64,000 nt of DNA from an uncultured Bacilli bacterium (GTDB lineage Bacteria > Bacillota_I > Bacilli_A > RF39 > UBA660), in the NCBI GenBank assembly GCA_944359065.1, contig CALVSP010000001.1, positions 4,314 through 68,313 of the forward strand, written 5' to 3'. Each line of letters starts with the position of its first letter. Within the stretch, counting starts at the first letter, position 1. This document shows, in pieces, positions 15,217 to 34,094 of this stretch. Under the pieces are notes generated by a model. It did no database searches. It was not told where the DNA came from and saw only the letters and a program-made list of their open reading frames with translations. The position numbers and the translations under genes were made by a program.

Positions 15217-16491
15217 CTATTTATTACAATTATTAATGATGTTATAAATATCTTCTTTAAAAAGAATTTTCTTTTCCTTCAACTCATTTGCAAGTACATC
15301 TAGTTTATTTCTATTCTGTAATAATATTTGTTTAACTTCATTGTAATACATATCAAGAATTTTAGTAGCGTTTTTATCTTTATTGTTTTTCACTATATCT
15401 GAACTATCAAAGCTATTTGATATACTATCAAATCCAAAAAAAGTATAATCGCTGACTAATCTTCGTGCTAAAGAATATGCATTATTTGTATCGCGATCAC
15501 TTCCAATATCGCATTTGTTATATACTATTTCTAACGCGGCCTTCCCTGCTAATAATATTTTAATTTTATTCTTTACAACATCAATATCATCAATATAATC
15601 GTTACCATTATATATAGCTAAACCCTTATTATTACCTATTTTAACAACTGAAACTGCTAAAACTGATTGTGGTTGTAATAAGTTTGCTATTAAAGCATGA
15701 GCTGCTTCATGATAAGCAACTCTTTGAGTATATTCGTTTTCTTCATTTAAATCATCAATTATTTCACTATAAGTATGTTCTAAAGATGCTTTAATCAGTT
15801 CTTCCATTCCTATTGATTTTTTATTTTTATATCCTGCATAAATACCTGCTTCATTGCATATATTTTCTAAATCTGCACATGATACTCTTTTTAGAATATA
15901 TGATATGTTTCTTGCATTTACATTCTTATCTATTTGCTTGTTACTTAAATAATGTTTAATTATTTTATAACTATCTTCATCTCTAGGATTTTCAACTTCT
16001 ACAATTATATCGAATCTACCTGATCTTAATAGTGAATCAGGAATATCATATTTCCAATTAGCAGTAGCAATTATAAATATATCGTCATCTTTCACTTCAT
16101 CTATTAATGATTGAACTGTAGCAAATTCCTTACTATTCTTTTTGTCTTGAGCTTCAGAAAATTTATCTAAATCATCTAACAAGATTAAAGATGGTTGAGT
16201 TTCTTTTGCTTGTTTAAAAATATCATTTAAGTGTTCTATAAAATTTTCATCTGCTTTATTTTTCCTTACAATATATGATTTTCTATTAGTGTAATCAATA
16301 AAGTTTTTGGCAATGCAAGTTTTGCCTATACCTGGGGGCCCATATAAAAATAAACCTTTGGGTATGCTTGAACCTAATTTTTTATATTTCTCTGGGTTAT
16401 TTAATACATCAATAGTTCTTTTTAAATGTTGTTTTATATTATCATATCCAATTATATTACTAAATATCTCTTTCTTTTTTTTCTCTTTCAT
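15217..16491 (-). CDS. soluble FtsH-like protein: AAA+ ATPase fused to an M41-type zinc-metalloprotease domain, with no transmembrane or periplasmic N-domain
   Basis: Walker A GPPGIGKT, Walker B ILLDDLD, second region of homology ATANW...RSGRFD, then AYHEAAHAL (HEXXH). Alignable along its length to FtsH from the AAA module onward. Confidence 0.75.
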   Translation of the reverse strand: MKEKKKKEIFSNIIGYDNIKQHLKRTIDVLNNPEKYKKLGSSIPKGLFLYGPPGIGKTCIAKNFIDYTNRKSYIVRKNKADENFIEHLNDIFKQAKETQPSLILLDDLDKFSEAQDKKNSKEFATVQSLIDEVKDDDIFIIATANWKYDIPDSLLRSGRFDIIVEVENPRDEDSYKIIKHYLSNKQIDKNVNARNISYILKRVSCADLENICNEAGIYAGYKNKKSIGMEELIKASLEHTYSEIIDDLNEENEYTQRVAYHEAAHALIANLLQPQSVLAVSVVKIGNNKGLAIYNGNDYIDDIDVVKNKIKILLAGKAALEIVYNKCDIGSDRDTNNAYSLARRLVSDYTFFGFDSISNSFDSSDIVKNNKDKNATKILDMYYNEVKQILLQNRNKLDVLANELKEKKILFKEDIYNIINNCNK

Positions 16492-16840: not shown

Positions 16841-17752
16841 CTATATGGTATCTACGTTCTTAAAGGTAGAACCAGGTTCATATGTCATCCAAATTGGTAA
16901 ATTACGATTGATTATTTCAGATGAATAATCTTGATAATTACTTGGTTCAAATGTAGGTCGAGAAGATATTGCAAGTATCTCACCAGTTTTAGGGTCCATA
17001 ACTATTCCTAATGCTTGATCAGGATTATATTTACTAATAGCATTATCTAATTCACTTTCTAGTGCTACTTGAATATTATAGTCAACAGTTAGATAAACAT
17101 CTATTCCATCTTGTGGTTGTTCATATACTTCTGATAATTTTAATTTGTTTCCTTTAGCATCACTAAAAAATTTAATAGCCCCATAACTTCCTGTTAAATA
17201 ATCATCATACATAAGTTCTAAACCAGATAATCCTTGATTATCGATACCAACAAAACCTAAAGTATGAGCAAGCATACTACCATATGGATAATATCGTTTA
17301 CTTTCTTTTAATAAATATACTCCAGGTAAATCTAAATCATTTATTTTATCTGCTGTTTCATAATCTAATCTTCTACCTTCAGGATGAACTCTTTCAATCG
17401 AAGATTTAACCGAAACATGCTCATACATTTCTTCATAAGTAACACCTAAAATAGGTGCGATTAATTCAGCAGTTTTTTCCTTATCTTCAATTTGATTAGG
17501 GATTAAAACTAAAGATGTCGTTGTTATATTATCAGCTAAAACAACACCATTTCGATCATATATTTTTCCTCTATTTGCTTCTATGGGTAAATTTCTACTC
17601 CATAAACTAGTTGCATAATTATTTAATTTTTCATATTCAAAAACTTGAATATAAAATACTTTACCAATTATCAAAATAAAAAATAAAAATATTATTAACA
17701 TTACTATTTTAATTCTTATATGAATATTTTTAAAAAACATATACTCACCCAC
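16841..17752 (-). pseudogene. truncated penicillin-binding protein (class B PBP N-terminal/dimerisation part) that stops 6 codons after the SXXK active-site motif
   Basis: N-terminal TM, then a PBP dimerisation-domain-like sequence. It ends ...YEPGSTFKNVDTI*. The transpeptidase domain after STFK is missing, and a non-coding stretch of about 350 bp follows before the accessory region. Confidence 0.6.
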
Positions 17753-18366: not shown

Positions 18367-19578
18367 TTAAACTATCAAATTAGATTTAGATACAATTATA
18401 ATAGGCACAATTTTACAACTATCAGTTTTTAAACCTTTATAATATTTTGAATTATTATCGTCAATTTTTTGATATTGAAATGCACCATCATTATATTCAT
18501 TATTAATCCAATAACAACTATTAGAAACTAAATAACTAAAATTAGAATTATTAAATTTATAATATCCATCATTTGTGATTGCATAATTTAATTCATTATT
18601 TAATCTATCTTGATAATTTAAATTTCCAATTATAACATCAGATAAATTATTTCTTACTAAAACAGAATTATTAACATCTTTAGAAATAACTGATAATATA
18701 TCACTCATTTCTAATGGTTTTGACGTAACTTTCCAATTTTTAGTTATTTGATTCATAGTAGTAGTATAATTTTCATATGTACTTACATCAAAGCCACTAT
18801 TTAAATCTGGTAATAACTTAACTGTAGTATCTCCTACTTTATTTCTTGAATCAATTACATAAGTTTTTAAACAAAAAGCACTTACTTGATCACAGACTTT
18901 ATTATTAATAACATCATATAAAACAACATCACCTAAATTGTAATTAGTGTCTGATGTTTCATTAGTAATCATCATTTGTTCCGCTTTTATTTCAATAACC
19001 ACTTCTAAAGATGATCTTATTTCATAATCAGGATTAGATTGTTTTTTTTGTTGTTCTTCCATATAAAATTGATATGCTTTATTTCCCCATTCACTATCCA
19101 ATTCATCATTATTAGAATCAAGTGGCCATGATATAGAAACATTAAACTTACCACTATCACCATGAGATAAAGCATAGTCTTTATCTAAATTCATATTAAT
19201 ATGAAATGGGTAATCATGAGATAATTTATCTATTAATTCCTCATTAGAATTATTATTTAAAACTTCATTTAAAACTCTAACTGACTTAATATTATAACTA
19301 ATTTGGGCATCAGAATCCCCTAAATTAGCTATATCAACATCTTTAAATTCAGTATCCATACCAGGATGAATATCCGATAATGAGATAACAATTTCATTTG
19401 AAACAACTTGTTCACCATTTTTAAATTCAATATTCCAAGCTTTAATATCAACATCAACAGTAGCGCTTGATAAACCACTATAAGCAAACCAAGCTAAAGT
19501 AATAGAAACAAAAGAAATTGCAACAAAAAATAGCGACATCAAATTTAATTTCAAAAATAATTTATGCTTTCTTTCCAC
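18367..19578 (-). CDS. secreted protein with SipW-cognate-type signal peptide (SITLAWFAYSG)
   Basis: 403 aa. N-terminal K-rich region, a hydrophobic helix, then a T-L-A-W-F motif. Immediately downstream of the SipW gene, the same arrangement as sipW-tasA. Confidence 0.55.
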   Translation of the reverse strand: MERKHKLFLKLNLMSLFFVAISFVSITLAWFAYSGLSSATVDVDIKAWNIEFKNGEQVVSNEIVISLSDIHPGMDTEFKDVDIANLGDSDAQISYNIKSVRVLNEVLNNNSNEELIDKLSHDYPFHINMNLDKDYALSHGDSGKFNVSISWPLDSNNDELDSEWGNKAYQFYMEEQQKKQSNPDYEIRSSLEVVIEIKAEQMMITNETSDTNYNLGDVVLYDVINNKVCDQVSAFCLKTYVIDSRNKVGDTTVKLLPDLNSGFDVSTYENYTTTMNQITKNWKVTSKPLEMSDILSVISKDVNNSVLVRNNLSDVIIGNLNYQDRLNNELNYAITNDGYYKFNNSNFSYLVSNSCYWINNEYNDGAFQYQKIDDNNSKYYKGLKTDSCKIVPIIIVSKSNLIV

Positions 19579-19597: not shown

Positions 19598-20152
19598 TTA
19601 CGCTTTTTTTCTTCTTTTTTCTTCTTTTTCTAGCATAGTCATAAGTATTTCAGAACCAATAATATATAAAAGTGGTATAAATATTAGGAAAAACATTCCA
19701 AATTTTGTAGCAACTATTTTATATATAAATGATAATATTATACATTTATATATAATTTTGCCATATACTTGACTTTCATAAACTATTGGATCTGGTGCAT
19801 CATTGGCGATACCTTGGGTATGAAAAATATATTTTCCATCTTCATCTTGTTCGATATTAATAACTTCGTGAGTTACAACTTTTCCAGCTAAAGTGCCTTG
19901 CTTACCTAAATAAGAAATAGAATCTCCAATTTCAATTTTAGATGGTTCAATCTCTTTAGCAATTAAAACATCGCCTATTTTATATTTTGGATCCATACTT
20001 CCAGATACAACAGTAAACATTCTAAAACTTAAAAATGATATTTTATTATTACTAAATCTTTGTAAAGCAACTACTAACAAAAATAAAATAATAAATATTG
20101 CAACAAATATATTTAAAATTGTTTTAATTATTTTAAAAGCCTTATTATTCAT
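19598..20152 (-). CDS. sipW: signal peptidase I, SipW/S26B (ER/archaeal) type
   Basis: 184 aa. N-terminal TM, VVSGSMDPKY (Ser nucleophile), VVTHEVI (His), TQGIANDAPD (counterpart of GDNNxxxD), C-terminal TM. Confidence 0.8.
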   Translation of the reverse strand: MNNKAFKIIKTILNIFVAIFIILFLLVVALQRFSNNKISFLSFRMFTVVSGSMDPKYKIGDVLIAKEIEPSKIEIGDSISYLGKQGTLAGKVVTHEVINIEQDEDGKYIFHTQGIANDAPDPIVYESQVYGKIIYKCIILSFIYKIVATKFGMFFLIFIPLLYIIGSEILMTMLEKEEKRRKKA

Positions 20153-20164
20153 ACTAACTAACCA

Positions 20165-21289
20165 CTACAAGTATTCTTGTGCCCTTTCTAAGTATTCTTC
20201 CATTGCATTTTTAAACTTTTTCTTAACATCATCCATACCAACTAATCTTTCACTTTTATCTTTTTTTATTTCTTTAGCTATCATATTTAATAATTCTTCA
20301 TCAGTTATTTCAATACCTGCACTTAATAATAAATCAACTATTCTTCTTATTTCTTCTCTTAACAATAAAACTGCGTTTTTAGCCATTTTTTTCTTTTGTT
20401 CTCTTTTAGAAGGAACTAAAGAATCTAAAACTAAATAATCTATTAAGAATGAGTGATCCAAAAATCCTTTTAATACATCATTTCCATTATCAGTATCATT
20501 TTCTTTTTTATTTTCATCATCCTCAAATTTTAATAAATATTCCCATAGTTTAACAGCAATTCTAAAGTTAGGATTCTTTAAAATGATATTAGTTTTCTTA
20601 ATTGGTGGCTTTATGAATGACACATGTGCTTTATCTAAAGCTTTATACATTTCACTTCTTTGCCAACTAGAAATATATTCTTTAATTCTTTTAATTCTAG
20701 CTTTGATTTTTTTAATTTCATCTTTAATTTTTTTGTCAACCTTTGCAGTTGGTAAAGTTTCTGATGTAACTTTTAATTCAATATCTAATTTTTCAAAATC
20801 AGTTACTGTTTTAGCAGAATACTCTAATACTTTATCATCACTTAATTCAAAATTATTAAGTAATTCCTCTTTTTCTAAAACAAATTTTAATAAAGAATCT
20901 ATTAGAGTATAGAGAAACCTATTTTCATATATATTATAGGTTTCTTCATTTCTAACATCCAATATTTTTTTAGGTTCAACACTTTTAGTTTTCTTATCAA
21001 CTTTATTAATATATTCAGTATGTTTACTCAAATCTTTAATACTTGCTACAGTAATTTTTTTTGATTTTTCAATTTTAACAGTATTTTCTTCTCTAATAAG
21101 TGCGATTTTAGGTTGTCTTACAATAATATCAATATATGGACAAGCATCTTCTATTACATCAATCCAATCAAAAGATACTAAATTACCTTCATAATCAGAT
21201 TTAAAAAACATCTCAGAGCCTAATTTTTTTAAAAATATATCAGTTCTATCTTTTACTTCTTTTTCAACTTCACATTTGAAATTGTCCAT
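20165..21289 (-). CDS. hypothetical cytoplasmic protein, apparently partnered with the McrB-like AAA+ gene (13 bp from the neighbours on each side)
   Basis: 374-aa ORF, K/E-rich, with no confidently recognisable nuclease motif. Confidence 0.4.
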   Translation of the reverse strand: MDNFKCEVEKEVKDRTDIFLKKLGSEMFFKSDYEGNLVSFDWIDVIEDACPYIDIIVRQPKIALIREENTVKIEKSKKITVASIKDLSKHTEYINKVDKKTKSVEPKKILDVRNEETYNIYENRFLYTLIDSLLKFVLEKEELLNNFELSDDKVLEYSAKTVTDFEKLDIELKVTSETLPTAKVDKKIKDEIKKIKARIKRIKEYISSWQRSEMYKALDKAHVSFIKPPIKKTNIILKNPNFRIAVKLWEYLLKFEDDENKKENDTDNGNDVLKGFLDHSFLIDYLVLDSLVPSKREQKKKMAKNAVLLLREEIRRIVDLLLSAGIEITDEELLNMIAKEIKKDKSERLVGMDDVKKKFKNAMEEYLERAQEYL

Positions 21290-21306
21290 ATAATATCAAC
21301 CCCTAA

Positions 21307-22836
21307 CTATATGCTTTTCTTAAGATTTTGTAAATATGCAATACATTCTTTCATTACATCTTTACCAAATTTTTTATTCAAATAAGAAATAAATGGATCA
21401 ATTTCATCTCTAATTAAAGCAACACTTAATTGATCAAATTTTCTTAATATTTTTTTAGCAATAAAGTAATCAATAGCTTCGATTTCTTTACCACCACATG
21501 CTACATAAACAGGAACAAATACACCTAATTGTTTCATAATACGATTACCAAAAGCAATTCTAAAATGTTCAATAACGTAATCATCTATTTCTCCAACATA
21601 ATTTAATCCTTTATCAGATAATGGATATTTTTCAATTGCATCAGCGAATAAACTGTCTAAATAACTTGAATTTATTTTTACTACATCTTGTTCACGACAT
21701 TTAAATGGATCTACTTTTGTATTAATATCAATAGGCATTGCTCTATCATATACTTTATCAGTAACCATAAATGTTGAATCATCATTATTAATAGTACCAA
21801 TATACCAAATATTACCTGGTAATTTAATTTTTCCTTTAATTAATTTTTTAGGATCATCTGGCCAAGCACTAGGAACTAAATCTACTAACCATTCATCACG
21901 ACTAGGCATTTCAAGAATTGATAATAAATCCGCAAAATAATATTCAACACGTGCTAAATTCATTTCATCTAGAATAATTGTATGAACATCATCATCAAAT
22001 GAAGCAGCATATATTTCACCTAAAGCCTTAGTTTCATTAAACTTTTTAGTAAATTCATTGAAATATCCTAAAAAATCTGATTTATCTCTCCAAGATGGTT
22101 CAACAGAAGATACACAAGCATCCATACCCATAAATTTTCCCCAAGCATATGCTAAGGAAGTTTTACCAGTACCAGAGATACCTTGTAAAATAATTAACTT
22201 ACCACAAGCTAAGCCACCAAAGAAAGGCCTTAAAATTGTAAAATCATAATATAAATGTAATTGACTAGCAGCAAAACATCTAAAATCATCAATTAATTGC
22301 GCTAAAGTTGTATCGTTTTCATATTTTTTAATTTTATAACCTTCAAATTGTTCATCAATAGCCACCAATTTAGGAAATCTAATTCCTTTAATAACAGCAT
22401 CTTCTTCTTCCGGTTTTTCTTCTTCTTTATTTTCTTCAGTTTCTTCCTCAGGATTAATTCCTAATTGAGAAACTTTCATAGCCATTAATTCTTCTCTTTC
22501 TTTCATTAACTTTCTAACTTGATCATTTAAATTACCAATTTCAGTTAATAATTCATCTTTACTTAAATTATTATTTAATTTTCTTATAATTTTTTTAACT
22601 AATAAGAATATTAATAATGCTATTAATAAAACAATTATTATTAAACAAACAACACACATAACAACAAATATTTTTTCATTGCCATTAAAATTATCTTTAT
22701 AACTTTCAATTATTTTAGCGTAATCACCAAAACTAAACATCTGTTTAATACCATTAATAAATCCTTTAAAAGCATTAAACAATCCATCAAAAAAGATAGA
22801 TATAAATTCGTAAAAAAATCTCAAAAATGTATTCAT
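21307..22836 (-). CDS. membrane-anchored AAA+ ATPase of the AAA_5 / McrB-like class
   Basis: 509 aa. TM helix (FVVMCVVCLIIIVLLIALLIFLL), coiled coil, acidic linker. Walker A GISGTGKTS. Walker B/sensor HTIILDEMNLARVEYYFADLLSILE (compare McrB hhIDEINRa...fGEl..LLE). Also IGTINNDDSTF...YDRA. Confidence 0.6.
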   Translation of the reverse strand: MNTFLRFFYEFISIFFDGLFNAFKGFINGIKQMFSFGDYAKIIESYKDNFNGNEKIFVVMCVVCLIIIVLLIALLIFLLVKKIIRKLNNNLSKDELLTEIGNLNDQVRKLMKEREELMAMKVSQLGINPEEETEENKEEEKPEEEDAVIKGIRFPKLVAIDEQFEGYKIKKYENDTTLAQLIDDFRCFAASQLHLYYDFTILRPFFGGLACGKLIILQGISGTGKTSLAYAWGKFMGMDACVSSVEPSWRDKSDFLGYFNEFTKKFNETKALGEIYAASFDDDVHTIILDEMNLARVEYYFADLLSILEMPSRDEWLVDLVPSAWPDDPKKLIKGKIKLPGNIWYIGTINNDDSTFMVTDKVYDRAMPIDINTKVDPFKCREQDVVKINSSYLDSLFADAIEKYPLSDKGLNYVGEIDDYVIEHFRIAFGNRIMKQLGVFVPVYVACGGKEIEAIDYFIAKKILRKFDQLSVALIRDEIDPFISYLNKKFGKDVMKECIAYLQNLKKSI

Positions 22837-22839
22837 AAA

Positions 22840-24882
22840 CTACTCTCCCCAATAACTTCCTATTTTACTTGCTATATCATCATAAGCAATTTTATTGTGT
22901 AATTCTTCTTTAATTGATGATAAAACATCAATCGATTCAAACATTTTCCCTTTTACTCTTTTATCGATAAATATGTATTCCATTGCTTCAACAATTCCTT
23001 GATCTTTTGCTTTAACTGCTGAAGTTTGTAAATCAACGGCAAATCTATATCCATCTTTAATTAATGATTTAATAACCTTTTTATTCTTTGACAATTCTTC
23101 ATATTGAGATAAAACAATAATATTATTTTTAGCATATTCATCACCAAATAAATTAAATATTTTATCTAACTTATTAGATTTAGTATATAAACTTTCTGGT
23201 ATATAGAATATATATTTTTTATTAAAATCAGCATTCAACATATCTTTAACAACTTGTACCAATAATAATGTTAATAAAACTTCTATTTTGTCTTCAGCAA
23301 CAATGCCATCATAATATGTTTTATCTACAATATAATCGCTATATACTTTACTAAAATTGATATTATGATTTAGTTCAACTGCGTAAGTATTTTTTATTGA
23401 TAAACTATTATAATTTAATTCAAATAAACTTGTTTCTAATTTTTCAATCGATTCTTTAACAATAGATTTATAAGTTTTTTGAATTTTTAATATACTACTA
23501 ATCATAGTATTCATTGTTTTTGGATCAACTTCAGTTCCAATTAATTTAACCATCTTATTTTTATAAGTTTGTTTTTTTATCTTAGTATCATCAATAACTA
23601 AATATGTGTGTTCTAAATGCATAATTAAAGTAAATATATTAGTGTATTTTTTTACCTTTTCACTATATTTATTATCAGTACCTTTATATACTTTAATCAT
23701 TTTTTCTGCTGCTTCTTTTAATGCATTTTCAATTCTAGTATTCATATTACGGCCATTATATTCAACATTGACATCTCCGCAATAATTATAATATTTACCA
23801 TCAATATAAACACTCATAAAGTTTTCTCTAATCGTTGCTTCATTAGTTTTTAAAGTTTCATCATTATTTAAAACTTCAATAATTTCCTTTAATTCTTCTT
23901 CTTTCATAAACATAGTTTTTTCGATTATATTTTTGAATTTTTTCTTTTTATTTTGTAACATTTCTAATTTTAATTCAACTTCAGCAACTTTAGGTTCTTC
24001 TTCTTTTTCTACAACGACTGGTTGTTCTTCTTCAATTTCAATTTTTTTAGCATAAGCATTTTCGATTTCATCTTTATCAACTTGAATCATTCTAAAATAC
24101 ATAGTTTTATCTAAATCTTCTGCTTCTAAAGGTTTTAAATCAGTAATTGTTTCATCAATTTTTTCATCTTTTACTTCTTCAACCTTAGTAACTTTTACTT
24201 CTTCATCTTCTTCTTTTATATTATTTTGAATTTTTTCTGGTTCTGATTTTTCTTTAATATATTCATCATTAACTATTTTTTTCTTATCCTTTTTAATTAA
24301 TTTAATAATATTTTTTATAAATATTTTTATTTTTTTAACTACATTTGCCATAAATACATCAAATTTCTTCATATCTTTTTCCTTCTTATTCTTCTTAATT
24401 GTTAATGTTACTAAATAAACAGTAATAATAATTGCAACTAAAACATAAGGATTAAATATTGTTTTTTTAAATATACCAAAAGCAGGTAATACTTTAACAA
24501 CTTTTCCAACTATTTGTTCTTGTGTAATTGGATCATCCTTAGCATCATTAGCATCACCTTTAGTTACATAAGTACCTTGGTATGCTTCAATAACTCTATG
24601 AGTTATAAATTCACCATCTTGCTTAAATGTAATAATATCATCTAATTTTATATTTTTAGAATACTTAACAACAATCCAATCACCAGGTTCAACTGCTTCT
24701 CCCATACTTCCTGTCTGCACTTCAAATACAGAGTAACCAAAAAAACTAGAGTAATCATTACCTAATAATTTAACTTGGATATTGTTGTATATAGAAATTA
24801 ATAATACTATTCCAAAAATAAAAATTAATATATTTAAACCAATATTGGCAACTTTTTCTAAAATTTTACCTTTATTTACCAT
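22840..24882 (-). CDS. fusion protein: N-terminal S26B/SipW-type signal peptidase domain plus a long K/E-rich coiled-coil and a C-terminal domain of about 380 aa of unknown function
   Basis: TM helix, QTGSMGEAVEPGDWIVV (Ser), FITHRVIEAY (His), TKGDANDAKDD, then a second TM (YVLVAIIITVYLVTLTI). Cytoplasmic extension of about 500 aa follows. Confidence 0.6.
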   Translation of the reverse strand: MVNKGKILEKVANIGLNILIFIFGIVLLISIYNNIQVKLLGNDYSSFFGYSVFEVQTGSMGEAVEPGDWIVVKYSKNIKLDDIITFKQDGEFITHRVIEAYQGTYVTKGDANDAKDDPITQEQIVGKVVKVLPAFGIFKKTIFNPYVLVAIIITVYLVTLTIKKNKKEKDMKKFDVFMANVVKKIKIFIKNIIKLIKKDKKKIVNDEYIKEKSEPEKIQNNIKEEDEEVKVTKVEEVKDEKIDETITDLKPLEAEDLDKTMYFRMIQVDKDEIENAYAKKIEIEEEQPVVVEKEEEPKVAEVELKLEMLQNKKKKFKNIIEKTMFMKEEELKEIIEVLNNDETLKTNEATIRENFMSVYIDGKYYNYCGDVNVEYNGRNMNTRIENALKEAAEKMIKVYKGTDNKYSEKVKKYTNIFTLIMHLEHTYLVIDDTKIKKQTYKNKMVKLIGTEVDPKTMNTMISSILKIQKTYKSIVKESIEKLETSLFELNYNSLSIKNTYAVELNHNINFSKVYSDYIVDKTYYDGIVAEDKIEVLLTLLLVQVVKDMLNADFNKKYIFYIPESLYTKSNKLDKIFNLFGDEYAKNNIIVLSQYEELSKNKKVIKSLIKDGYRFAVDLQTSAVKAKDQGIVEAMEYIFIDKRVKGKMFESIDVLSSIKEELHNKIAYDDIASKIGSYWGE

Positions 24883-24978: not shown

Positions 24979-26589
24979 TTAATCATTCTCTTTAATTTCT
25001 TTAGCAACAATTTTTTCAACTTGCACAATAAACCAAATCTTTTCAATTGTTGTTTCACTTTTTTCTATTTTATTTACTCTTAATATTAATAATATCTTAT
25101 TAAGTAAATTTTTAAGATTATCTTCATTTAAATCATCTTCACTAATATTAATACTATTTAATCGATATTTATTACTAATTGTTTTAGCAATATTATTACT
25201 AGAAAAAATTGGTACTCCAGTAATAATAATATTAGTTGGATTCATTGCAAACAAATCAAAATTATCGCTATATTTAATAATTTCATCATAATCAGTTATA
25301 TTATAAACTTTTTGAATTGTTAATTTTTTAAAATAATCAAAACTATAATATAAATTCAAAACATCAGAAATAGTTAATGTATCATTTAATATCATCATTA
25401 CTTTATCTTTAAAATATTCAATATCATAAGTTTTATATAACTCATATAATTCTTTAGCTTTTAAAACTGATTGTAATTTTAATTGCTTTAAAGCACTATC
25501 AGATCTAAACTCAAATAAACCTGGTTTACCACTAAAGATTTTCTTATTTAATTTTTCTAATTCATTTTCTTTAGTTTCTATTTGATCAATAATAGTTTTT
25601 AAACCTTTATACTCTTTTTTATCAGTAGTCAATAATTTTTCATATTCATCTTTAAAATACTTAAACATTGGATAAAACTCTAAATAATTTTGATATTCTA
25701 AAATATTTAATTTTAATTTTTCTAAAGCAGGCGCTACTTTATCAACATCAGTAACTTCTGGAATTAAAGAATCAAATGCTGTTTTGCGTCCTTTACTATC
25801 ACTTAAATATTGTTCGATATCTAATTCTTTAGTTTTAGCCATAGCTATTATGTCACTAATAGTTTCTTTACTTGCCATATTTAAATCAATATAAGCATCT
25901 TGTAATTTTTCTAAACAATGAGCATAATCTCTAATTTTATTTTTCTCCATTACTTCTTTTTGTAATGTTAAAATATAATTATTAAATTTACGACTATTTT
26001 TCTTAATTAACTTTCTAAAATTTAATTCTATATGTTGAATAAGTTCAGGATTTACCCAATAAATTTGTTCAAATATTTCTGATACTTTATCATAACTACT
26101 TAATCTTCTATTTCTTACTTCTAAAAAAGCAGTCATATATTCATGGACATAACAAGTATAATTAAAATCATCACTTTCTAAATGAATACCTGCTTGTTCA
26201 AACTTATCTAATAAACCATTTATTATTTCATTTAAAGATTTAAAATTAAATGTATCATAATTATTAATTTGATATAGTAAATCATCAAAACACATTTTTT
26301 CGACATAGGTATTAGTTGGATTTAAAAGAAATTTAACATTTTCTAAAGTTTCTAATTTTTCTGTTAATTGATCTAAATCAGTAGATTCTTTAACTTCAAA
26401 ACTTTTAGCCTTAGCAATTAAATAATTTCTAGTGCTAGTTTTATATTCTTCATATCTTTCAATTATATCATCAATTGTTTCATTAAATTTCTTTTTATTT
26501 GTTTTAGTTTTAGTAGGCATAGTGGAAATTAATGTTTTTTTTGCTTCAATATCTTTATTTATAAATTCTAAAAAATTATTCATCTTCAT
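24979..26589 (-). CDS. hypothetical all-alpha cytoplasmic protein
   Basis: 536 aa with no TM. Sits inside the same tightly spaced minus-strand gene string. Confidence 0.4.
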   Translation of the reverse strand: MKMNNFLEFINKDIEAKKTLISTMPTKTKTNKKKFNETIDDIIERYEEYKTSTRNYLIAKAKSFEVKESTDLDQLTEKLETLENVKFLLNPTNTYVEKMCFDDLLYQINNYDTFNFKSLNEIINGLLDKFEQAGIHLESDDFNYTCYVHEYMTAFLEVRNRRLSSYDKVSEIFEQIYWVNPELIQHIELNFRKLIKKNSRKFNNYILTLQKEVMEKNKIRDYAHCLEKLQDAYIDLNMASKETISDIIAMAKTKELDIEQYLSDSKGRKTAFDSLIPEVTDVDKVAPALEKLKLNILEYQNYLEFYPMFKYFKDEYEKLLTTDKKEYKGLKTIIDQIETKENELEKLNKKIFSGKPGLFEFRSDSALKQLKLQSVLKAKELYELYKTYDIEYFKDKVMMILNDTLTISDVLNLYYSFDYFKKLTIQKVYNITDYDEIIKYSDNFDLFAMNPTNIIITGVPIFSSNNIAKTISNKYRLNSINISEDDLNEDNLKNLLNKILLILRVNKIEKSETTIEKIWFIVQVEKIVAKEIKEND

Positions 26590-26736: not shown

Positions 26737-27783
26737 CTATTCATATCCTTGTGTATCTTTTAAGAAATTTAATGAAATATATATTTCAGCACCATCAGAA
26801 TCTGTTTCTAGACTATCAATATCTTGTCCTTCAATCCAAACATATACTCTTGTTTTAGTTATACCATCTGGTACAGTAAATAAAGGTTGTTCAAAATCTT
26901 CATCAGTCATAGTTTCTTGTAATTCAAAATAATTTGGATCAAGATTTGGTGAACCAGATACTGTATTTGCTACAAATATAGGACCACCTGCTCTAGTAAA
27001 TGCATATGTTGGAAATTCTTGCCCATCAATTAAATTAACGCCATATTTAGTAGCCCTTTCAATAGAAAGATTTGAATGTGCTTTACTATTTGGCTCAAAA
27101 ATAATAGAATAACAATTATTATTACATTCAATATTTTGAACTTCATTTGCTGGTGCATCTTTAGCAACAGATCCAATTTTAACAATACCAATACGAGCAG
27201 AATTTAATAAACCTATCATTTCTTCTTCTGCATTTTTTTCCATTGTGATTGAAGTACCATATTCAAAATATAAATTATCGCTTACTGGAGAACCAGAATC
27301 ATTTTTGAAAAACAAATCAAATGCTATATAATTATTGTACTCATTTCTGCCACCTTCATGCATTAAATTAGTTCTTATATAACCATTATTTTTATCCTTA
27401 TTTGGATATCTAACCCCACTACTTGAAAACATATTAAATATCGGACTATCATGATTAGTAATTCCATTTGAAGAAATAGGTACTAATCCGCCACCTGCCC
27501 ATTGACTTGTATTATTAGGATAAGTATATCTTAATCCTCTTATAAGTTCATCAGCAGATATAATTAAATCAGTATCAAAATTAATACCATCTAAAGAAAT
27601 AGATAATCCAGTATTCTTTTTAACCGTCATAGTAAATGTTTTTACTCTAACATTTAAATTGGTTGAAAACCATGCATATGTTGAAAAAATAAGCAAAATA
27701 CCTACTAATACCATAATAGTGATAGTAACTTTTTTATTTGTTTTTTCAATAATTCTTTGTCTAAAAGTATTTTGTTTTTTCAT
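26737..27783 (-). CDS. secreted protein, SipW-cognate signal (STYAWFSTNLNV); member of the IWIEGQDID family
   Basis: 348 aa. C-terminal region TKTRVYVWIEGQDIDSLETD shared with paralogues. Confidence 0.55.
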   Translation of the reverse strand: MKKQNTFRQRIIEKTNKKVTITIMVLVGILLIFSTYAWFSTNLNVRVKTFTMTVKKNTGLSISLDGINFDTDLIISADELIRGLRYTYPNNTSQWAGGGLVPISSNGITNHDSPIFNMFSSSGVRYPNKDKNNGYIRTNLMHEGGRNEYNNYIAFDLFFKNDSGSPVSDNLYFEYGTSITMEKNAEEEMIGLLNSARIGIVKIGSVAKDAPANEVQNIECNNNCYSIIFEPNSKAHSNLSIERATKYGVNLIDGQEFPTYAFTRAGGPIFVANTVSGSPNLDPNYFELQETMTDEDFEQPLFTVPDGITKTRVYVWIEGQDIDSLETDSDGAEIYISLNFLKDTQGYE

Positions 27784-27844
27784 TTTTCACCACCTAATTA
27801 ATAAAGGAAGAGTAATTAACCAAATTACTCTTCTTTATTATCAA

Positions 27845-29146
27845 TTATTCACCATTTGTTGGAGTAATATCTGTACTTGGTCCATCGTAACCTGGAATAT
27901 CAGATTCAATATATCTTTCTTTAGTGAATCCAAAATTAACTGTAATTTTCTTTCCTAATGAAGCGAAATCATAATTATCGATATCTTGTCCTTCAATCCA
28001 AATGTAAACTCTAACTTTTGTAATACTATTTGGAGCTAAAGTCATAAACTGTGGACGATCTTTACCAGCAACATTTTTCATTGTATCAGTAAAGTATGGG
28101 AATTCAACTAAGTTATATGTACTTCTATTTCCTGCAATGTAAGTTTCATAATCTACAGTATTTTTTGTATAAGTATTGTAAGCTAATCCATCATAAATAT
28201 TTACATTATCAGCAATTTCAATATCATTACTAATTGCATATGTTGGATAAGCTGTACCATTTTCTACTGCAGTACATTTTGAACCAGCATTATATGAATC
28301 TGGATCATTAACATCGTCACCATCAGTAGAAGCTTTTCTTGTTAAACAAGATTTTTGATACCAATTAATAGCATTTTGTACGTGTTTAGTATCGTTTGGT
28401 TCCCAAATTTGAGCATCTCTACAAATTCCAGTTACTTGAACTTGGCCATCAGCAGCAGGTACATCAGCGCAAGTGATTTTTGTAATATTGTCAACTGATT
28501 CAGTATTAGCTTCAACACGCCCGATTTGCGCGAAAGCAACTCTTACTGAATTTTCAATACCTGCTTTTTTTTCTCCACCATTTGCAGAAACTTTAACTTC
28601 TGAATTAGTAGTTAAATAAATTGCTTCTTCATTTAATGGATTATTATCAGTATAATAAGCATTTCCTGATAAGTTTTTAATGAATAAGTCAAATGCTACA
28701 TATCCATTTTCTTCTTCATATTCAACACCACCAGCATTTAAAGTAGTATGGTTATCAACTTGTTTAGATAATAATCTATAACCACCAGTAACAGCAGTTA
28801 AACTTCCTTTTTCATATAATTTCATTCTTGATGAAGCTTTATGCATATCACCAACAGATGACATTGGAATTAATCCTTCGCCAGGTTGATCTAACCATTG
28901 GTTAGCATTTCCTTCATAAGGATCAGCATTTCTTGCATCTAATGTATATTTCCAGTTTTCTCCATCCATAGATAAGAATAAACCTTCTGTTGTTGCTATG
29001 TTAACACTAAATTCTGCAACATTAACAGTTTTCATACCAATAAACCATGCATAAGTTGAAACTGATAATAAGATTGCACATAAAGAACAAATAGCAACTA
29101 AATCTCTAATTCTTTTACTTTTTTTACTATTATGTTTTTTTGCCAT
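27845..29146 (-). CDS. secreted protein, SipW-cognate signal (STYAWFIGMKTVNV); paralogue of 37550..38866
   Basis: 433 aa. Ends ...RVYIWIEGQDIDNYDFASLGKKITVNFGFTKERY. Confidence 0.55.
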   Translation of the reverse strand: MAKKHNSKKSKRIRDLVAICSLCAILLSVSTYAWFIGMKTVNVAEFSVNIATTEGLFLSMDGENWKYTLDARNADPYEGNANQWLDQPGEGLIPMSSVGDMHKASSRMKLYEKGSLTAVTGGYRLLSKQVDNHTTLNAGGVEYEEENGYVAFDLFIKNLSGNAYYTDNNPLNEEAIYLTTNSEVKVSANGGEKKAGIENSVRVAFAQIGRVEANTESVDNITKITCADVPAADGQVQVTGICRDAQIWEPNDTKHVQNAINWYQKSCLTRKASTDGDDVNDPDSYNAGSKCTAVENGTAYPTYAISNDIEIADNVNIYDGLAYNTYTKNTVDYETYIAGNRSTYNLVEFPYFTDTMKNVAGKDRPQFMTLAPNSITKVRVYIWIEGQDIDNYDFASLGKKITVNFGFTKERYIESDIPGYDGPSTDITPTNGE

Positions 29147-29214
29147 AATTTCCTCCTATATTTAAATTTTAGTAACCTAGAAGATTAATTAAAATCTTCT
29201 AGTTACTTTAATAA

Positions 29215-30459
29215 TTATTCACCTAATGTTGGTCTCTTATCAACATCACTTGGTAATTTAGGATCACCATCATAGTTGATATCTTCACCATATAATTGTT
29301 CTTTAGTAAATCCAAATGAAAGTGAGATTTGTCCTCCTAATGAAGCAAAATCATAGTTATCAACATCTTGTCCTTCAATCCAAATATAAACTCTAATTTT
29401 TGTAATACTATTTGGAGCTAAATAGAATAATTCTGGTCTTTCAGTACCTTTTAAATTTTTCATTGTATCTGTGAAAGTAGATACTTTCATTAATTTGCCT
29501 TTAGTAGCAGTCATAGCAACTGAAGCAGTATAACCATTGTATTCAGTACCATCATATACATCTACTTGATCAGTGTAATTAATTTCACCACTTACTGCAT
29601 ATGTTGGAACAAAAGTACCATCAGTAACAGTACCACATGTACCACTAAATGAACTTGGATTAGTAATATCAGCCGCTTTTCTCTTTAAGCATGATTTTGT
29701 ATACCATTGAATTGCATTATTTACGTGTTTTGTATCATTTGGTTCCCAAATTGTAGCATCTCTATTTGTACAAATACTAGAAACGCCATTACCACCTGTA
29801 CAATCAATTCCTTGAATTTTTGAAGTATTTTCTTCAGTTGCAACTACACGTCCAATTTGTGCGAAAGCAACTCTTACTGAATTTTCAATACCAGCTGTTT
29901 TTTGTCCAGCAGCACCAGTTTTAACAACTGATTGTGGAGTTAAATAAATTCCTTCTTCATTTTTTATATCAACTGTATCATAATAAGCATTTCCTGATAA
30001 GTTTTTAACAAATAAATCAAATGCTACATATCCATCTTGTTCAGTAGTATCATTTTCAACTTGCCTAGCCATTACACGATAACCACCAGGTGAAGCTGTG
30101 AAACTACCTTTTTCATATAAAATTAAGTTAGATGAATCAGTGTCGATTTTTCCAACTGTTGACATTGGAATTAATCCTTTGCCACCCCAACTGTTTGTAT
30201 TAGTCGAATATGTTCCTTTAACACCAGGATCACTATAATTACTTTCGTTAATTGTTACTGTGTCACCAAAATTTTTACCATCTAATGAAAGTGATAAACC
30301 ATCGATTGCAGCAATTTCTACATCGAATGCGGTAACGTTAACAGTTTTCATACCAATAAACCATGCATAGGTTGAAACTGATAAAATAGTAGCACATAAA
30401 CCAGCTCCAACAAGCAATTTTTTGACACGTTTTTCATGTCTTCTATTTCTTTTTTCCAT
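29215..30459 (-). CDS. secreted protein, SipW-cognate signal; paralogue of 38877..40295
   Basis: 414 aa. STYAWFIGMKTVNVTAFDVEIAAIDGLSLSLDG... and RVYIWIEGQDVDNYDFASLGGQISLSFGFTKEQ. Confidence 0.55.
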   Translation of the reverse strand: MEKRNRRHEKRVKKLLVGAGLCATILSVSTYAWFIGMKTVNVTAFDVEIAAIDGLSLSLDGKNFGDTVTINESNYSDPGVKGTYSTNTNSWGGKGLIPMSTVGKIDTDSSNLILYEKGSFTASPGGYRVMARQVENDTTEQDGYVAFDLFVKNLSGNAYYDTVDIKNEEGIYLTPQSVVKTGAAGQKTAGIENSVRVAFAQIGRVVATEENTSKIQGIDCTGGNGVSSICTNRDATIWEPNDTKHVNNAIQWYTKSCLKRKAADITNPSSFSGTCGTVTDGTFVPTYAVSGEINYTDQVDVYDGTEYNGYTASVAMTATKGKLMKVSTFTDTMKNLKGTERPELFYLAPNSITKIRVYIWIEGQDVDNYDFASLGGQISLSFGFTKEQLYGEDINYDGDPKLPSDVDKRPTLGE

Positions 30460-30478
30460 ATGTACCTCTCTCTTTTCA

Positions 30479-31174
30479 TTAATTTTCTACGTACTCTGAA
30501 TTGAAATCCATATAAACAGAGAATTCGCCACCTAAGATATCATCTGTACATTCAGGATCACTACCCTCAACCCAAATGACAATTGTATATTTATCGATAT
30601 CTCCAGGTTTGAAATTATCAACTTTATTACGAGCAACTAATTTTTCTTCTTCAAATGGAATAGTATCTGGCTCATTTCTTCCATTAGAAGCTTTCTTAGC
30701 GTACGTAACAGGTTGTCCATTTCGATAGACTCTAATTCTTACAGCACTGTCGATTTTTTTGATAACATCTGTGATAAAAAGTTCACTCCAATAGCTTGTA
30801 ATTTCATATCCAACATTCTCAACAAAAAATGTATAAGCAAGGTATTCAGAACCATTATGAGAACCACCAGTAGAATCATCTAAATTATCGGGTAACCAAT
30901 TACCAGATATATTAGTGAATGTTTTAGGCGAAGCAACTGATAATTCTGCTTGATACACTTTATAATTAGGATCATCGTAAATGATAATACCTCTACTAAA
31001 GTATAAGTTTTTATCCAGTGTTATACTAAAATTACCACTATTATAAATAATACCTATAACTAAATACAAAAGAATAAATAGGAAAAGAAATATTAATAAA
31101 GCTATTCTAAAGATCTTTTTAAGTTTTTTTTCATTTTTGATTTTCTTTGAACTAAGCTTAATCTTATCTTCCAT
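30479..31174 (-). CDS. membrane-anchored 231-aa paralogue (N-terminal TM, no obvious cleavage motif) sharing the C-terminal W[IV]EG.D motif; first gene of cassette 1
   Basis: KKLKKIFRIALLIFLFLFILLYLVIGIIYNSGNFSITLDKN ... KYTIVIWVEGSDPECTDDILGGEFSVYMDF. About 60% identical to 40285..40977. Confidence 0.55.
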   Translation of the reverse strand: MEDKIKLSSKKIKNEKKLKKIFRIALLIFLFLFILLYLVIGIIYNSGNFSITLDKNLYFSRGIIIYDDPNYKVYQAELSVASPKTFTNISGNWLPDNLDDSTGGSHNGSEYLAYTFFVENVGYEITSYWSELFITDVIKKIDSAVRIRVYRNGQPVTYAKKASNGRNEPDTIPFEEEKLVARNKVDNFKPGDIDKYTIVIWVEGSDPECTDDILGGEFSVYMDFNSEYVEN

Positions 31175-31477: not shown

Positions 31478-32089
31478 ATGGCAATGAAATTTAAAATATT
31501 GTTAGTTATTAGTTCTTTGGCATTAACATTAAGTTTGATGAGTAATACTTATTCAAGATATGTTGCTGATGTTGATAGCAATATTGATTTGTTATTCGCT
31601 AAGTGGCAAATTTTAGTTAATGAAAATGATATTACCAATAATACTACAACTTCTATCAATATTACTCCAGTTATGGAAGAAAATGTTAACGTTGCTGAAA
31701 ACACCGTTGCTCCTTCTTCTAAAGGTTATTTTGATATTGACATTGATCCATCTAATGCTGGTGTATCATTTGATTATTCAATCAATTTAAACATTGAAGA
31801 TGAAAATATGCCTGATTTAATGATTAGTAAATATGCAGTTTTAGATAAAGATTATAATGAAGGAGATCAAATAACTACAACCACTATTTTAAATAATACA
31901 ATAGATGGAACTGTTGATTATAACGCTACTACACATGAACCATTTACAGTAAGAGTTTTCTTTGAATGGTATGAAGGTGTTGATGAAAAAATGGATGATG
32001 AAGCTGATACAAATATAGGTTATGAAGCAGCATTAAATAATAAATCATTACTAGTAAACGCATCAATTAGTTTCAATCAAAAAATTTAA
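31478..32089 (+). CDS. TasA/camelysin-sized secreted protein with SipW-cognate signal (MSNTYSRYVADVDSN)
   Basis: 203 aa. It has its own promoter (ttgatt-17-tataat at 31418..31446) and is divergent from cassette 1. Confidence 0.55.
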   Translation: MAMKFKILLVISSLALTLSLMSNTYSRYVADVDSNIDLLFAKWQILVNENDITNNTTTSINITPVMEENVNVAENTVAPSSKGYFDIDIDPSNAGVSFDYSINLNIEDENMPDLMISKYAVLDKDYNEGDQITTTTILNNTIDGTVDYNATTHEPFTVRVFFEWYEGVDEKMDDEADTNIGYEAALNNKSLLVNASISFNQKI

Positions 32090-32155: not shown

Positions 32156-32689
32156 TTATTCTTCTACATCTACTTCATCACCATATTTAATTTCAACTAT
32201 TAATGCATATAATTCATAAATAAAGATTAAGAAACAAGGTACTAATACGATAAATAAGAAGCCCCATTGTGATTCGATAATTCCTAACACTCCTCCAATA
32301 TCATTATATACTTTAGTAGGTCTACCAATTAAATATTTGATTGAATATGTTTCACCATTTTCTAATGTAAGATAATCATCCATAACTTCTCCAACTTTAC
32401 CAATATTGATATCAGCAGTTTTAGACATCTTATCGACTTTATAAACGAATACTTCTTCACCTTTTTGTAAATTTTCTGGTGCAGCTTCTTCAACTAAAAC
32501 TAAATCACCTTTTTGATATTCTTCATGACTTACCTTATCTTTTAAAATTACTAATGAAGTTTCACCAAATACTGTTACACGATAATCATTGAAATTCAAA
32601 AGTAAAATTGTCATAAATAATGCAAAGGTAAAATAAACAATTCCTAATGTTACTAATAATACTTTCTTAATTTTTTTTAAAACTTTCAT
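32156..32689 (-). CDS. SipW-like topology protein (N- and C-terminal TM helices flanking a beta-rich domain) lacking recognisable catalytic Ser and His; candidate inactive signal-peptidase paralogue
   Basis: 177 aa. TM1 VLLVTLGIVYFTFALFMTILLL. The domain contains KGDLVLV and EVFVYKV. TM2 FLFIVLVPCFLIFIYELYALIV. No GSM or THRV motif. Confidence 0.35.
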   Translation of the reverse strand: MKVLKKIKKVLLVTLGIVYFTFALFMTILLLNFNDYRVTVFGETSLVILKDKVSHEEYQKGDLVLVEEAAPENLQKGEEVFVYKVDKMSKTADINIGKVGEVMDDYLTLENGETYSIKYLIGRPTKVYNDIGGVLGIIESQWGFLFIVLVPCFLIFIYELYALIVEIKYGDEVDVEE

Positions 32690-33556: not shown

Positions 33557-34085
33557 CTAACTTCTGCCAACTATTTATTTCCACATCAATGAAATCTGCT
33601 AAATTTGTATATTCTAATGAATTATACTCACTAGGGAAAGTTACTTTTAATTTATAATTATCTAACGTTTCATTTGTATGTTCTAGTGTTTGAATTGAAG
33701 AATTACATACCAATTCATTTTTTTCATTTCTTGAATAAGTCTCATCACATTTCATTATTAATTCTTCCGTTTCCCCTACTTTATATAATTCAATATCTAA
33801 AGGCATAAAATGAAATGTTTTAATAGTAATTTGATATTCAACTGTTACATTACTTAATTCATTATCCTTATTAGCAACTGAAAATAAATACTCTTCATTA
33901 CTACCAGGATTTAAATTACTTAAATTTAACTCTAAATGATCTAATTGTTTACTTTCAAATACAAATTTAGCGATTTTTTGATCTACTTTTATATTACTGT
34001 TAGAATTAAACATTGAATATGTAACACCAGTACCTAAAAATATAGTTATTAAAATAAATAAAATTATCAATACTTTATGTTTCAT
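33549..34085 (-). CDS. TasA/camelysin-sized secreted protein with SipW-cognate signal (GTGVTYSMFNSNSN)
   Basis: 178 aa. Lies 10 bp downstream of the 1109-aa gene. Confidence 0.55.
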   Translation of the reverse strand: MKHKVLIILFILITIFLGTGVTYSMFNSNSNIKVDQKIAKFVFESKQLDHLELNLSNLNPGSNEEYLFSVANKDNELSNVTVEYQITIKTFHFMPLDIELYKVGETEELIMKCDETYSRNEKNELVCNSSIQTLEHTNETLDNYKLKVTFPSEYNSLEYTNLADFIDVEINSWQKLGD

Positions 34086-34094
34086 AACACCCTC

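Follow-up and report, generated by a model that had tools for sequence, protein, structure and literature searches.

TasA of Bacillus subtilis carries the cleavage site T-W-A|A-F. The peptidase encoded in the same operon (tapA-sipW-tasA), SipW, has the catalytic triad S47/H87/D106 (PMC8767453) and, as outlined in that paper, a second function which needs 20 cytoplasmic C-terminal residues. TasA is cleaved by SipW and is a poor substrate of LepB because of the Phe at its P2' position, as summarised in PMC10269814. Here we describe a gene cluster in a 64,000-nt stretch of DNA from an uncultured Bacilli bacterium (contig CALVSP010000001.1; the whole stretch is called the window below), in which three homologues of SipW are encoded together with an McrB-like AAA+ GTPase, a protein of the family DUF2357 and a series of secreted proteins. 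The three signal-peptidase genes are the conserved core of a gene cluster of uncultured gut Bacilli, and the class to which the cluster belongs has been named and is uncharacterised. We give about an even chance to the reading that the cluster encodes a GTPase-coupled platform which processes dedicated surface proteins and probably helps to assemble them, by a mechanism that we infer from gene content and predicted structures.

As in the tapA-sipW-tasA operon, an endoplasmic reticulum (ER)-type peptidase with Ser, His and Asp is encoded beside its candidate substrates, which have an aromatic residue at P2'. Unlike the operon, the locus has three peptidase paralogues instead of one, a cytoplasmic extension of 515 amino acids (aa) instead of 20 residues, and both an McrB-like GTPase and a DUF2357 protein; its secreted proteins are without detectable homology to TasA or camelysin, and its free-standing peptidase of 184 aa scores below the SipW equivalog cutoff.

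SipA is a P-type (S26A) relative of the signal peptidases which has one transmembrane (TM) helix and works with sortases. In Streptococcus pyogenes this signal-peptidase-like protein (SipA/LepA-like), which is encoded in a surface-polymer locus and is without catalytic residues, is essential for pilus polymerisation (PMC4049620). One of the three paralogues in the window, a 177-aa protein which we call the dead paralogue, likewise has the S26 fold without the catalytic residues, and SipA (PDB 4N31) was among the top structural matches both for this protein and for the N-terminal domain of a second paralogue, a 680-aa fusion protein. Unlike SipA, the 177-aa protein is S26B-like and has two TM helices, and neither a TLxTC sortase signature in the window nor an LPXTG-like motif in the locus proteins was found; sortase pili were rejected on these two grounds.

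The eukaryotic signal peptidase complex (SPC; PDB 7P2P/7P2Q; SEC11A/C and SPCS1-3) illustrates a multi-subunit peptidase with non-catalytic membrane partners. For the active domains, and likewise for the dead paralogue, the best sequence-profile and structure matches were SEC11A and SEC11C. What the dead paralogue resembles is the catalytic subunit, of which it is a degenerate copy, and it is no homologue of the accessory subunits of the SPC. An earlier note on this DNA, made by a model from the letters and reading frames, had compared it to the inactive SPC subunits; since it resembles SEC11 the analogy is a loose one, and SipA is the closer precedent (PMC4049620).

The class to which the locus belongs is CoCoPALM, the name given to a large clade of McrB-like GTPases with an NxD motif (Bell et al. 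2024, eLife, PMC11090510). In the one paragraph which that paper devotes to them, with details deferred to a later paper, the GTPase is described as fused to an FtsB-like TM and coiled-coil domain, the McrC homologues as having coiled coils, and the systems as associated with the signal-peptidase family under the label 'pilus assembly'; they are placed next to the CoCoNuT defence systems. No follow-up paper was found in a literature search. We assign the locus to CoCoPALM because an McrB-like GTPase and a DUF2357/McrC-N protein are encoded between its peptidases. An McrB-family AAA+ GTPase with an N-terminal TM and a helical segment, an adjacent DUF2357 McrC homologue and S26B-type signal-peptidase genes were found syntenic across species, and the hosts are Bacillota as in CoCoPALM. 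Beyond what the CoCoPALM paragraph contains, the locus has three S26B paralogues, an EAL-fold fusion with an obligatory GTPase adjacency, the conserved TM helix of the dead paralogue and T-x-A|x-F/Y substrates. We found no earlier description of the EAL-fold module or its invariant pairing with the GTPase, nor of the substrate motif and the recurrent S26B paralogues without Ser.

Sample and scope

The window has a GC content of about 25% and its minus strand carries nearly all genes. Relatives were sought in one genome per species; a relative of the fusion was encoded in 124 genomes, and 80 of these were kept. All 80 are metagenome-assembled genomes (MAGs) or uncultured-isolate assemblies, about three quarters are labelled Bacilli, Bacillales, Tenericutes, Mollicutes or other Bacillota, and several of the sample names indicate animal or human gut sources. 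The synteny set consisted of 82 loci (numbered with the prefix L) from about 80 species, and neighbours were counted up to 10 kb from the fusion gene. All co-location counts given below are lower bounds, contig ends having cut many loci.

The contigs of loci L027, L047, L049, L053-L056, L063, L068-L070, L074 and L078 were deposited under MAG titles like 'uncultured Muribaculaceae' or 'Ignavibacteriales'. A Bacilli-type locus under such a title probably reflects mis-binning or mislabelling.

Two predicted active signal peptidases and a dead paralogue

Hidden Markov model (HMM) searches, profile alignments (hhalign) and structure matches confirmed the three SipW-type homologues of the earlier note, all of which lie on the minus strand of the window (Table 1). 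Reciprocal family HMMs picked only these three S26B open reading frames (ORFs) in the window, and the SipW-family HMM scored them at 309, 43.6 and 23.1 bits, with noise below 8 bits.

The free-standing protein of 184 aa matched TIGR02228 (sigpep_I_arch) with 78.9 bits, above the cutoff of 51.85, and its Ser52, His95 and Asp121 were invariant in all 71 homologues. Alignment of the fusion with this protein by hhalign (97.7% probability, E 2e-12) spanned both TM helices and the beta domain, supporting a topology with two TM helices. The earlier note had called it a canonical SipW, which holds for the family model and the catalytic residues and goes too far for the name itself: the protein scored 68.5 against the B. 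subtilis SipW equivalog (cutoff 190) and has I/L in place of the first Asp of the GDxN box, so that it is a SipW-type enzyme and not a SipW orthologue. We class it as a standard ER/SipW-type peptidase, predicted to be active.

The N-terminal part of the 680-aa fusion reached 25.8 bits with Pfam Peptidase_S24 (cutoff 23.3) and gave no match to TIGR02228. Its family profile matched human SEC11C and SEC11A (E 7e-6 to 6e-5) with the Ser of SGSM, the His of HRV and the Asp of GDxN...D aligned, and S59, H95, D110, N112 and D116 were kept in 73 of 74 species-level homologues, whose identity goes down to 33%. In the database 797 proteins matched the fusion at E<=1e-3, with identity down to 48% among the full-length matches listed. 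The AlphaFold2 (AF2) model placed a TM helix at residues 7-39, a beta domain at 50-132 and a second TM helix at 145-164, and in a Foldseek search against the PDB this part matched SipA, LexA and UmuD. The active-site contexts of the fusion and the free-standing enzyme differ (TGSM vs SGSM; GDANxxxD vs G(I/L)ANxxxD). The complete S26B domain between two TM helices which had been read from the sequence was thus confirmed by conserved residues, modelled topology and the SEC11 alignment, and these data support a second complete S26B active site, predicted to lie outside the membrane.

The 177-aa protein was modelled (predicted local distance difference test, pLDDT, 77) as a helix at residues 2-31, strands at 38-128 and a helix at 142-169, and its top Foldseek matches in the PDB were SEC11A, SEC11C, LexA and SipA (E 6e-3 to 4e-2, prob 0.87-1.0). 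It aligned by hhalign with the 184-aa SipW-type protein (86% probability, E 5e-6) and scored 22.1 bits with TIGR02228, below the cutoff. In 52 of 57 homologues I or V stands where the nucleophile Ser would align, the place of the general-base His is variable, and between residues 33 and 130 no Ser or His is conserved at >=90% among the homologues. The strongest conservation in this family lies in the C-terminal TM helix, SQWGFLFIVLVPCFLIFIYExYALIVEIKYG. The findings support a protein with the S26B fold and topology, as modelled, and without nucleophile or general base, which is what the earlier note had proposed. A fusion without Ser or His, or a 177-aa protein without S26-fold similarity, had been named there as counter-evidence; the fusion keeps both residues and the 177-aa protein shows the similarity.

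A Ser-less S26B protein of another kind was encoded in locus L083 (2880-3437, +). This 185-aa counterpart of the fusion's peptidase domain (hhalign 94%) keeps the His and Asp boxes (IHRIV and KGDDN) and is without the nucleophile Ser, and is by its sequence a second, independent kind of S26B pseudo-peptidase. In locus L086 a longer homologue of the dead paralogue, of 335 aa, is encoded at 6934-7941 (+).

Secreted proteins and gene order

Eight families of secreted proteins were compared, which are named here by their length in the window (p403 and so on). The top conserved N-terminal feature in seven of them (p403, p348, the p414 group, p203, p285, p178 and p1109) was T-x-(A/S)|x-(F/Y), situated right after the hydrophobic region, and took the family-wide forms S-T-Y-A|W-F (348, 414, 433, 438 and 472 aa), I-T-L-A|W-F (403 aa), T-Y-S|x-F (178 aa), T-x-A|K-Y (285 aa), T-Y-S|R-Y (203 aa) and T-L-A|R-x (1109 aa). 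The eighth family (231 and 230 aa) has N-S-G|N-F at the corresponding place, possibly a variant of the same cleavage motif. The putative cleavage motif resembles the TasA site in its small residues at -3 and -1 and in the aromatic residue that occupies P2'.

No sequence likeness to TasA/camelysin (Peptidase_M73), to pilins or to any other solved structure was found beyond the signal peptide for the 178-aa and 414-aa families with Pfam, NCBIfam and PDB profiles, and no SipW-cognate signal-peptide model of NCBIfam matched the secreted proteins at E<=5. At least 2043 unnamed database proteins are related to the 414-aa family, and a few of them carry a DUF5011 Ig-like domain. Homology to TasA/camelysin was rejected, the profile searches being empty and the relatives either unnamed or DUF5011 proteins.

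Five genes, namely those of the three peptidase paralogues, the McrB-like GTPase and the DUF2357 protein, are syntenic with at least eight secreted families in at least 80 species of uncultured Bacilli/"Tenericutes". Among the 82 loci the McrB-like gene was found near the fusion gene in 80, the SipW gene in 77, the DUF2357 gene in 71 (always after the McrB-like gene), p403 in 68, the pseudo-peptidase gene in 58, and the remaining secreted proteins and a 536-aa protein (p536) in 39-56. The last of these, which matched nothing in Pfam or the PDB, was syntenic in 39 loci and occurs in the divergent locus L083 as well. The canonical order is substrates, p536, p1109, p178, p285, pseudo-peptidase, fusion, McrB-like, DUF2357, SipW and p403, with p203 on the opposite strand; p285, p178 and p1109 always lie upstream of the pseudo-peptidase gene, which in this common order is directly upstream of the fusion gene. 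In the window a block of p203, p231, p414, p433, p348 and p536 intervenes between the two. The genes from the fusion through to p403 are separated by gaps of 3-19 nt. Since the three peptidase genes co-occur with each other and with secreted proteins bearing SipW-type motifs in dozens of species, the pattern argues for specialised, non-redundant roles of the three paralogues. Substrate channelling or a part in assembly, which the earlier note had suggested, may go with these roles.

The surface proteins are the fastest-evolving parts of the locus, with identities in non-close relatives of 31-46% for p1109 and 29-49% for p285. The 1109-aa protein (34095..37424, -) is the most divergent of the locus across species, consistent with an exposed adhesin-like component, and gave a sub-threshold match to an OmpL47-type beta-barrel/Ig-like model (29 bits, cutoff 40). 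The substrate module is duplicated in the window, each copy consisting of a 230/231-aa anchored protein, a 414/472-aa and then a 433/438-aa T-Y-A|W-F protein, and the two blocks have the highest GC content of the window (0.31 vs about 0.24).

The cytoplasmic module and its GTPase neighbour

The AF2 model of the fusion continues after the second TM helix with a K-rich helix (168-199), an acidic linker (195-296), a helical bundle (299-482) and an alpha/beta domain (487-680). Its pLDDT has a mean of 71, is below 50 over residues 195-296 and is about 80-93 in the C-terminal module of residues 297-680. The K/E-rich coiled coil which the earlier note had placed after the peptidase domain therefore reduces to the one K-rich helix, the remainder being a low-confidence acidic linker of variable length; the C-terminal domain of about 380 aa stood, as a well-predicted module of 384 aa. 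The linker contains a short motif, EDLDKTMYFRMxxVDKxEI (residues 255-275, nt 24058..24120), which lies in gappy alignment columns and in which D258, T260, R264 and V268 are invariant. It is likely a docking site for a partner protein. The motif is present twice in an 873-aa homologue (P0263).

Invariant residues of the module are Y359, Y364, F487, N507, F510, Y514, S515, K521-Y523, G526, E530-K532, Y557, K568, K571 and G611, with H506 nearly invariant (75/81), and by this pattern of sequence conservation they define an unannotated protein family. When a profile of residues 296-680 was run against 1.8 billion cluster representatives, 359 proteins were found, mostly fusions of 600-870 aa, together with standalone proteins of about 320-350 aa and forms that have a TM anchor only. 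Fusion to an active peptidase is thus the commonest architecture of the module and not its sole one. The module is standalone in loci L083, L085 and L087; in L083 and L085 the fusion is split, its S26B-like part and the module being encoded by two genes. In L086 (8001-9797, +) the module sits on a plain N-terminal TM region, with no peptidase domain, in a protein of 598 aa (P0321). In all four of these contexts the McrB-like gene (46-62% identity) follows directly after the module gene, and the DUF2357 gene comes next wherever the contig continues; L085 and L086 also have, nearby, a SipW gene, genes for T-Y-A|W-F proteins and one for a homologue of the dead paralogue. Because the adjacency holds whether the module is fused, TM-anchored or free, the invariant pairing is that of module and McrB-like GTPase. 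The data support an autonomous cytoplasmic unit which, in the loci compared, is always encoded directly upstream of the McrB-like gene.

This pairing bears on the explanation that three independent, substrate-specialised peptidase-like proteins share a set of precursors, the extension being a regulatory or signalling tail, a larger form of the C-terminal one of B. subtilis SipW, and the McrB-like and DUF2357 proteins having a separate role and being merely co-transcribed. B. subtilis SipW is itself bifunctional through a cytoplasmic tail, as outlined in PMC8767453, and the two distinct active-site contexts and the many distinct substrate families would suit such a division of labour. However, the module stays directly upstream of the McrB-like gene even when unfused, the stop codon of the fusion is only 3 nt from the start codon of the McrB-like gene, and the dead paralogue cannot be a specialised peptidase. 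We consider this explanation unlikely, though it deserves to be kept in mind.

The earlier note had described the span 19598-24882 by its peptidases, correctly, and had overlooked the McrB-like and DUF2357 genes between them. The McrB-like family profile matched E. coli McrB in the PDB (E 9e-6) with Walker A (GISGTGKTS), Walker B (IILDEMN) and NNDD aligned, the last onto the NTAD signature. The invariant motif N350-N351-D352-D353 reads equally as NxD+D or as NxxD, and HMMER aligns it ungapped to the NTAD of E. coli McrB. Read from the sequence, the protein has a hydrophobic N-terminus/TM segment at residues ~57-81 and a helical, heptad-like segment at ~90-125; no match to the FtsB/DivIC family was obtained at E<=0.1. 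The 374-aa protein encoded next to it matched Pfam DUF2357 with 44.6 bits (cutoff 23.3). It had no detectable nuclease domain or PD-(D/E)xK part, and its family gave no sequence match in the PDB, McrC structures included.

Such a pair also invites a reading in terms of conflict or defence, in which the locus is a branch of the McrBC (type IV restriction-like) family and no housekeeping assembly machine, the McrB/McrC-like proteins sense infection and the peptidases remodel or shed surface structures (e.g. phage receptors) or damage the envelope. The McrB-like protein matched the candidate-defence model PDC-M26A of PADLOC (2.5e-36) besides the McrB structures, CoCoPALM is set beside the CoCoNuT defence systems in the paragraph cited above (PMC11090510), and the surface proteins evolve fastest. 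Against this, the McrB-like protein was the sole PADLOC match, and nuclease, HEPN or nucleic-acid-binding domains were undetected in the locus proteins scanned, the DUF2357 protein included. The McrB-like protein is moreover the most conserved of the locus (mean column identity 75%), a degree of conservation that in general would not be expected of a defence gene, and the gene order is constant in about 80 species of one lineage. The GC content of the locus equals that of its surroundings, and a phage origin was rejected as there were no PHROG matches. We regard a defence role as quite unlikely.

The predicted EAL-like fold of the C-terminal domain

The earlier note had not recognised the extension of the fusion; it was right that the fusion is real and missed the predicted fold of its C-terminal part. 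A Foldseek search of this part against the PDB returned the EAL domains of Bd1971, FimX, LapD, RocR, MucR and MorA (E 6e-5 to 7e-3), and more than 25 of the top 50 matches were EAL domains with a probability of about 1.0. The target-normalised TM-scores were 0.43-0.52 for isolated EAL-domain entries of FimX, MucR, MorA and LapD and 0.27-0.35 for multi-domain entries. From the model, the last ~200 aa of the 384-aa module are predicted to have an EAL-like fold.

Membership of the EAL family by sequence was rejected. Pfam EAL (PF00563) gave no match in 13 members of the module family even at E<=10, hhalign of the module against E. coli PdeH and PdeK was negative, and the positions picked by eye as candidates for the catalytic residues vary: E503 for the Glu of EAL (E30/K12/N11/D10) and D617 for the Asp of DDFG (D21/V14/...). 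The likeness to EAL is therefore one of fold only.

In LapD/LapG and FimX, as in the modelled fusion, an EAL-like fold lies on the cytoplasmic side while the output is outside the membrane. One might accordingly ask whether the domain is a degenerate cyclic di-GMP (c-di-GMP) receptor which switches the outside peptidase, as LapD controls LapG. Among the structural matches are FimX and LapD, whose EAL domains are degenerate receptors, and the topology of a cytoplasmic sensor with an extracytoplasmic protease function is analogous. Unlike LapD and FimX, however, the fusion is without the EAL signature, conserved c-di-GMP or metal ligands, HAMP or GGDEF, and has its protease fused and not recruited. 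No GGDEF or DDFG(T/S)G motif was present in the window or the 82 fetched loci, and the hosts are labelled as Tenericutes/Mollicutes-like Bacilli, in which c-di-GMP signalling is often absent. Inside-out signalling of this kind is very improbable here.

The 680-aa ORF might be suspected of being an artefact of assembly or gene calling that joins a peptidase to an unrelated downstream gene, and the split versions in L083 and L085 could be cited for this. The suspicion is refuted, since 73 species-level homologues share the uninterrupted architecture, as do hundreds of metagenomic proteins that come from independent assemblies.

Proposed mechanism

In the GTPase-coupled platform which we favour, the two active peptidases would cleave the T-x-A|x-F/Y proteins from their signal anchors. 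The dead paralogue may be a membrane scaffold or a substrate-holding chaperone, as SipA is in streptococcal pili, and would act through its conserved TM helix and its beta domain. Through its second TM helix and the flexible linker, the peptidase of the fusion is, by the predicted structure, tethered to the cytoplasmic helical and EAL-fold module, which might dock the McrB-like ring together with the DUF2357 protein as partner or activator. GTP hydrolysis or the state of the GTPase could then gate or drive cleavage outside the membrane and the transfer of subunits to a surface polymer. The EAL-like domain would not be a c-di-GMP phosphodiesterase and is most likely a protein- or ligand-binding module.

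Several observations weigh against this proposal. McrBC relatives are overwhelmingly defence systems. The module is linked to the McrB-like and DUF2357 proteins by gene adjacency alone, and the assignment of the EAL fold comes from a single AF2 model (mean pLDDT 71) with Foldseek TM-scores of about 0.5. Catalysis by the fusion paralogue is not universally required, since its counterpart in L083 has no Ser and L086 has no peptidase domain. We also have to admit that the words 'pilus' and 'fibre' are an assumption taken from the signal-peptide type and from the label of Bell et al., as the secreted proteins are without detectable sequence similarity to TasA, camelysin or any solved pilin.

A bolder version, which we hold to be possible but doubtful, is a surface-filament machine in which a membrane-anchored McrB-type ring and its McrC-N partner, derived from DNA restriction, dock onto the EAL-fold module of the fusion, GTP hydrolysis gates or powers a polymerisation of T-x-A|x-F/Y subunits that is coupled to cleavage and takes place outside the cell, and the dead peptidase holds the subunits as a chaperone. 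If true, this would be an energised route of assembly that differs from those of sortase pili and type IV pili and from that of unassisted TasA-type fibres. A GTPase coupled across the membrane to cleavage would show how a motor of the restriction type came to be exapted for building the envelope, and how uncultured, genome-reduced gut Bacilli make surface structures. CoCoPALM was flagged in 2024 as a group of McrBC relatives linked to pilus assembly and left unexplored, and the window offers a clean, complete example with a list of its parts: two active and one dead ER-type peptidase, an EAL-fold module as invariant neighbour of the GTPase and a large, abundant, unannotated secreted family with a SipW-type cleavage site and at least 2000 relatives. 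Even on a conservative reading, the repertoire of signal peptidases gains a new domain fusion and an S26B pseudo-enzyme that recurs.

Feature coordinates and neighbouring genes

Table 1. Features of the signal-peptidase locus, in positions of the window.
Feature	Coordinates	Strand	Evidence
Free-standing S26B (ER/SipW-type) signal peptidase, 184 aa	19598..20152	-	TIGR02228 match, invariant Ser52/His95/Asp121
Fusion protein, whole ORF, 680 aa	22840..24882	-	
Fusion aa 1-165: TM1, predicted extracytoplasmic S26B domain (Ser59, His95, Asp110, Asp116), TM2	24388..24882	-	Pfam, AF2, SEC11 alignment
Fusion aa 166-296: K-rich helix next to the membrane, followed by a disordered acidic linker whose length varies	23995..24387	-	pLDDT <50 over 195-296
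Fusion aa 297-482: conserved cytoplasmic helical bundle, signature YIDxKYYNYCGDxNVEYNGRNM	23437..23994	-	AF2, invariant residues
Fusion aa 483-680 and stop: alpha/beta domain, EAL-like predicted fold, without EAL motifs	22840..23436	-	Foldseek
Catalytically dead S26B-fold paralogue, 177 aa, TM / beta domain / TM	32156..32689	-	AF2, Foldseek, hhalign, reciprocal HMMs
McrB-like AAA+ GTPase, 509 aa, hydrophobic N-terminus/TM and helical coiled-coil-like segment	21307..22836	-	PDB McrB profile match
DUF2357 protein (McrC N-terminal-domain homologue), 374 aa	20165..21289	-	Pfam DUF2357
Cytoplasmic helical protein, 536 aa, core locus component	24979..26589	-	Synteny
Substrate block 1: secreted proteins of 348, 433 and 414 aa, paralogous to each other (S-T-Y-A|W-F), and a 231-aa N-terminally anchored protein	26737..31174	-	
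Substrate block 2 (second copy of the substrate module): 230-aa anchored protein and 472- and 438-aa S-T-Y-A|W-F proteins	37550..40977	-	
Secreted 203-aa protein, N-T-Y-S|R-Y; opposite strand conserved	31478..32089	+	
Secreted proteins of 285 aa (T-L-A|K-Y), 178 aa (T-Y-S|M-F) and 1109 aa (S-L-A|R-Y; large, repeat-rich, putative adhesin)	32699..37424	-	
Secreted 403-aa protein, I-T-L-A|W-F; always downstream of free-standing SipW	18367..19578	-	

On one side of the locus lies an ORF of 303 aa (16841..17752, -) for a penicillin-binding protein, in which the dimerisation domain is present but the transpeptidase domain stops after its first ~50 residues; it looks truncated or like a pseudogene. 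It is followed by a gene (15217..16491, -) for a 424-aa AAA+/M41 FtsH-like protein without obvious N-terminal TM helices. On the other side the locus is adjoined by a divergently oriented gene (41065..41721, +) for a homologue of staphylococcal nuclease (SNase, 59.6 bits), which by eye has a signal sequence at its N-terminus and a TM anchor at its C-terminus. The 205-aa product of 42611..43228 (+) looks by eye like a LexA-like repressor with a GESM...K autoproteolytic domain, and scored at noise level with the S26B HMMs; if it is LexA-like, it would be a fourth protein of the S24/S26 clan in the window, unrelated to the locus.

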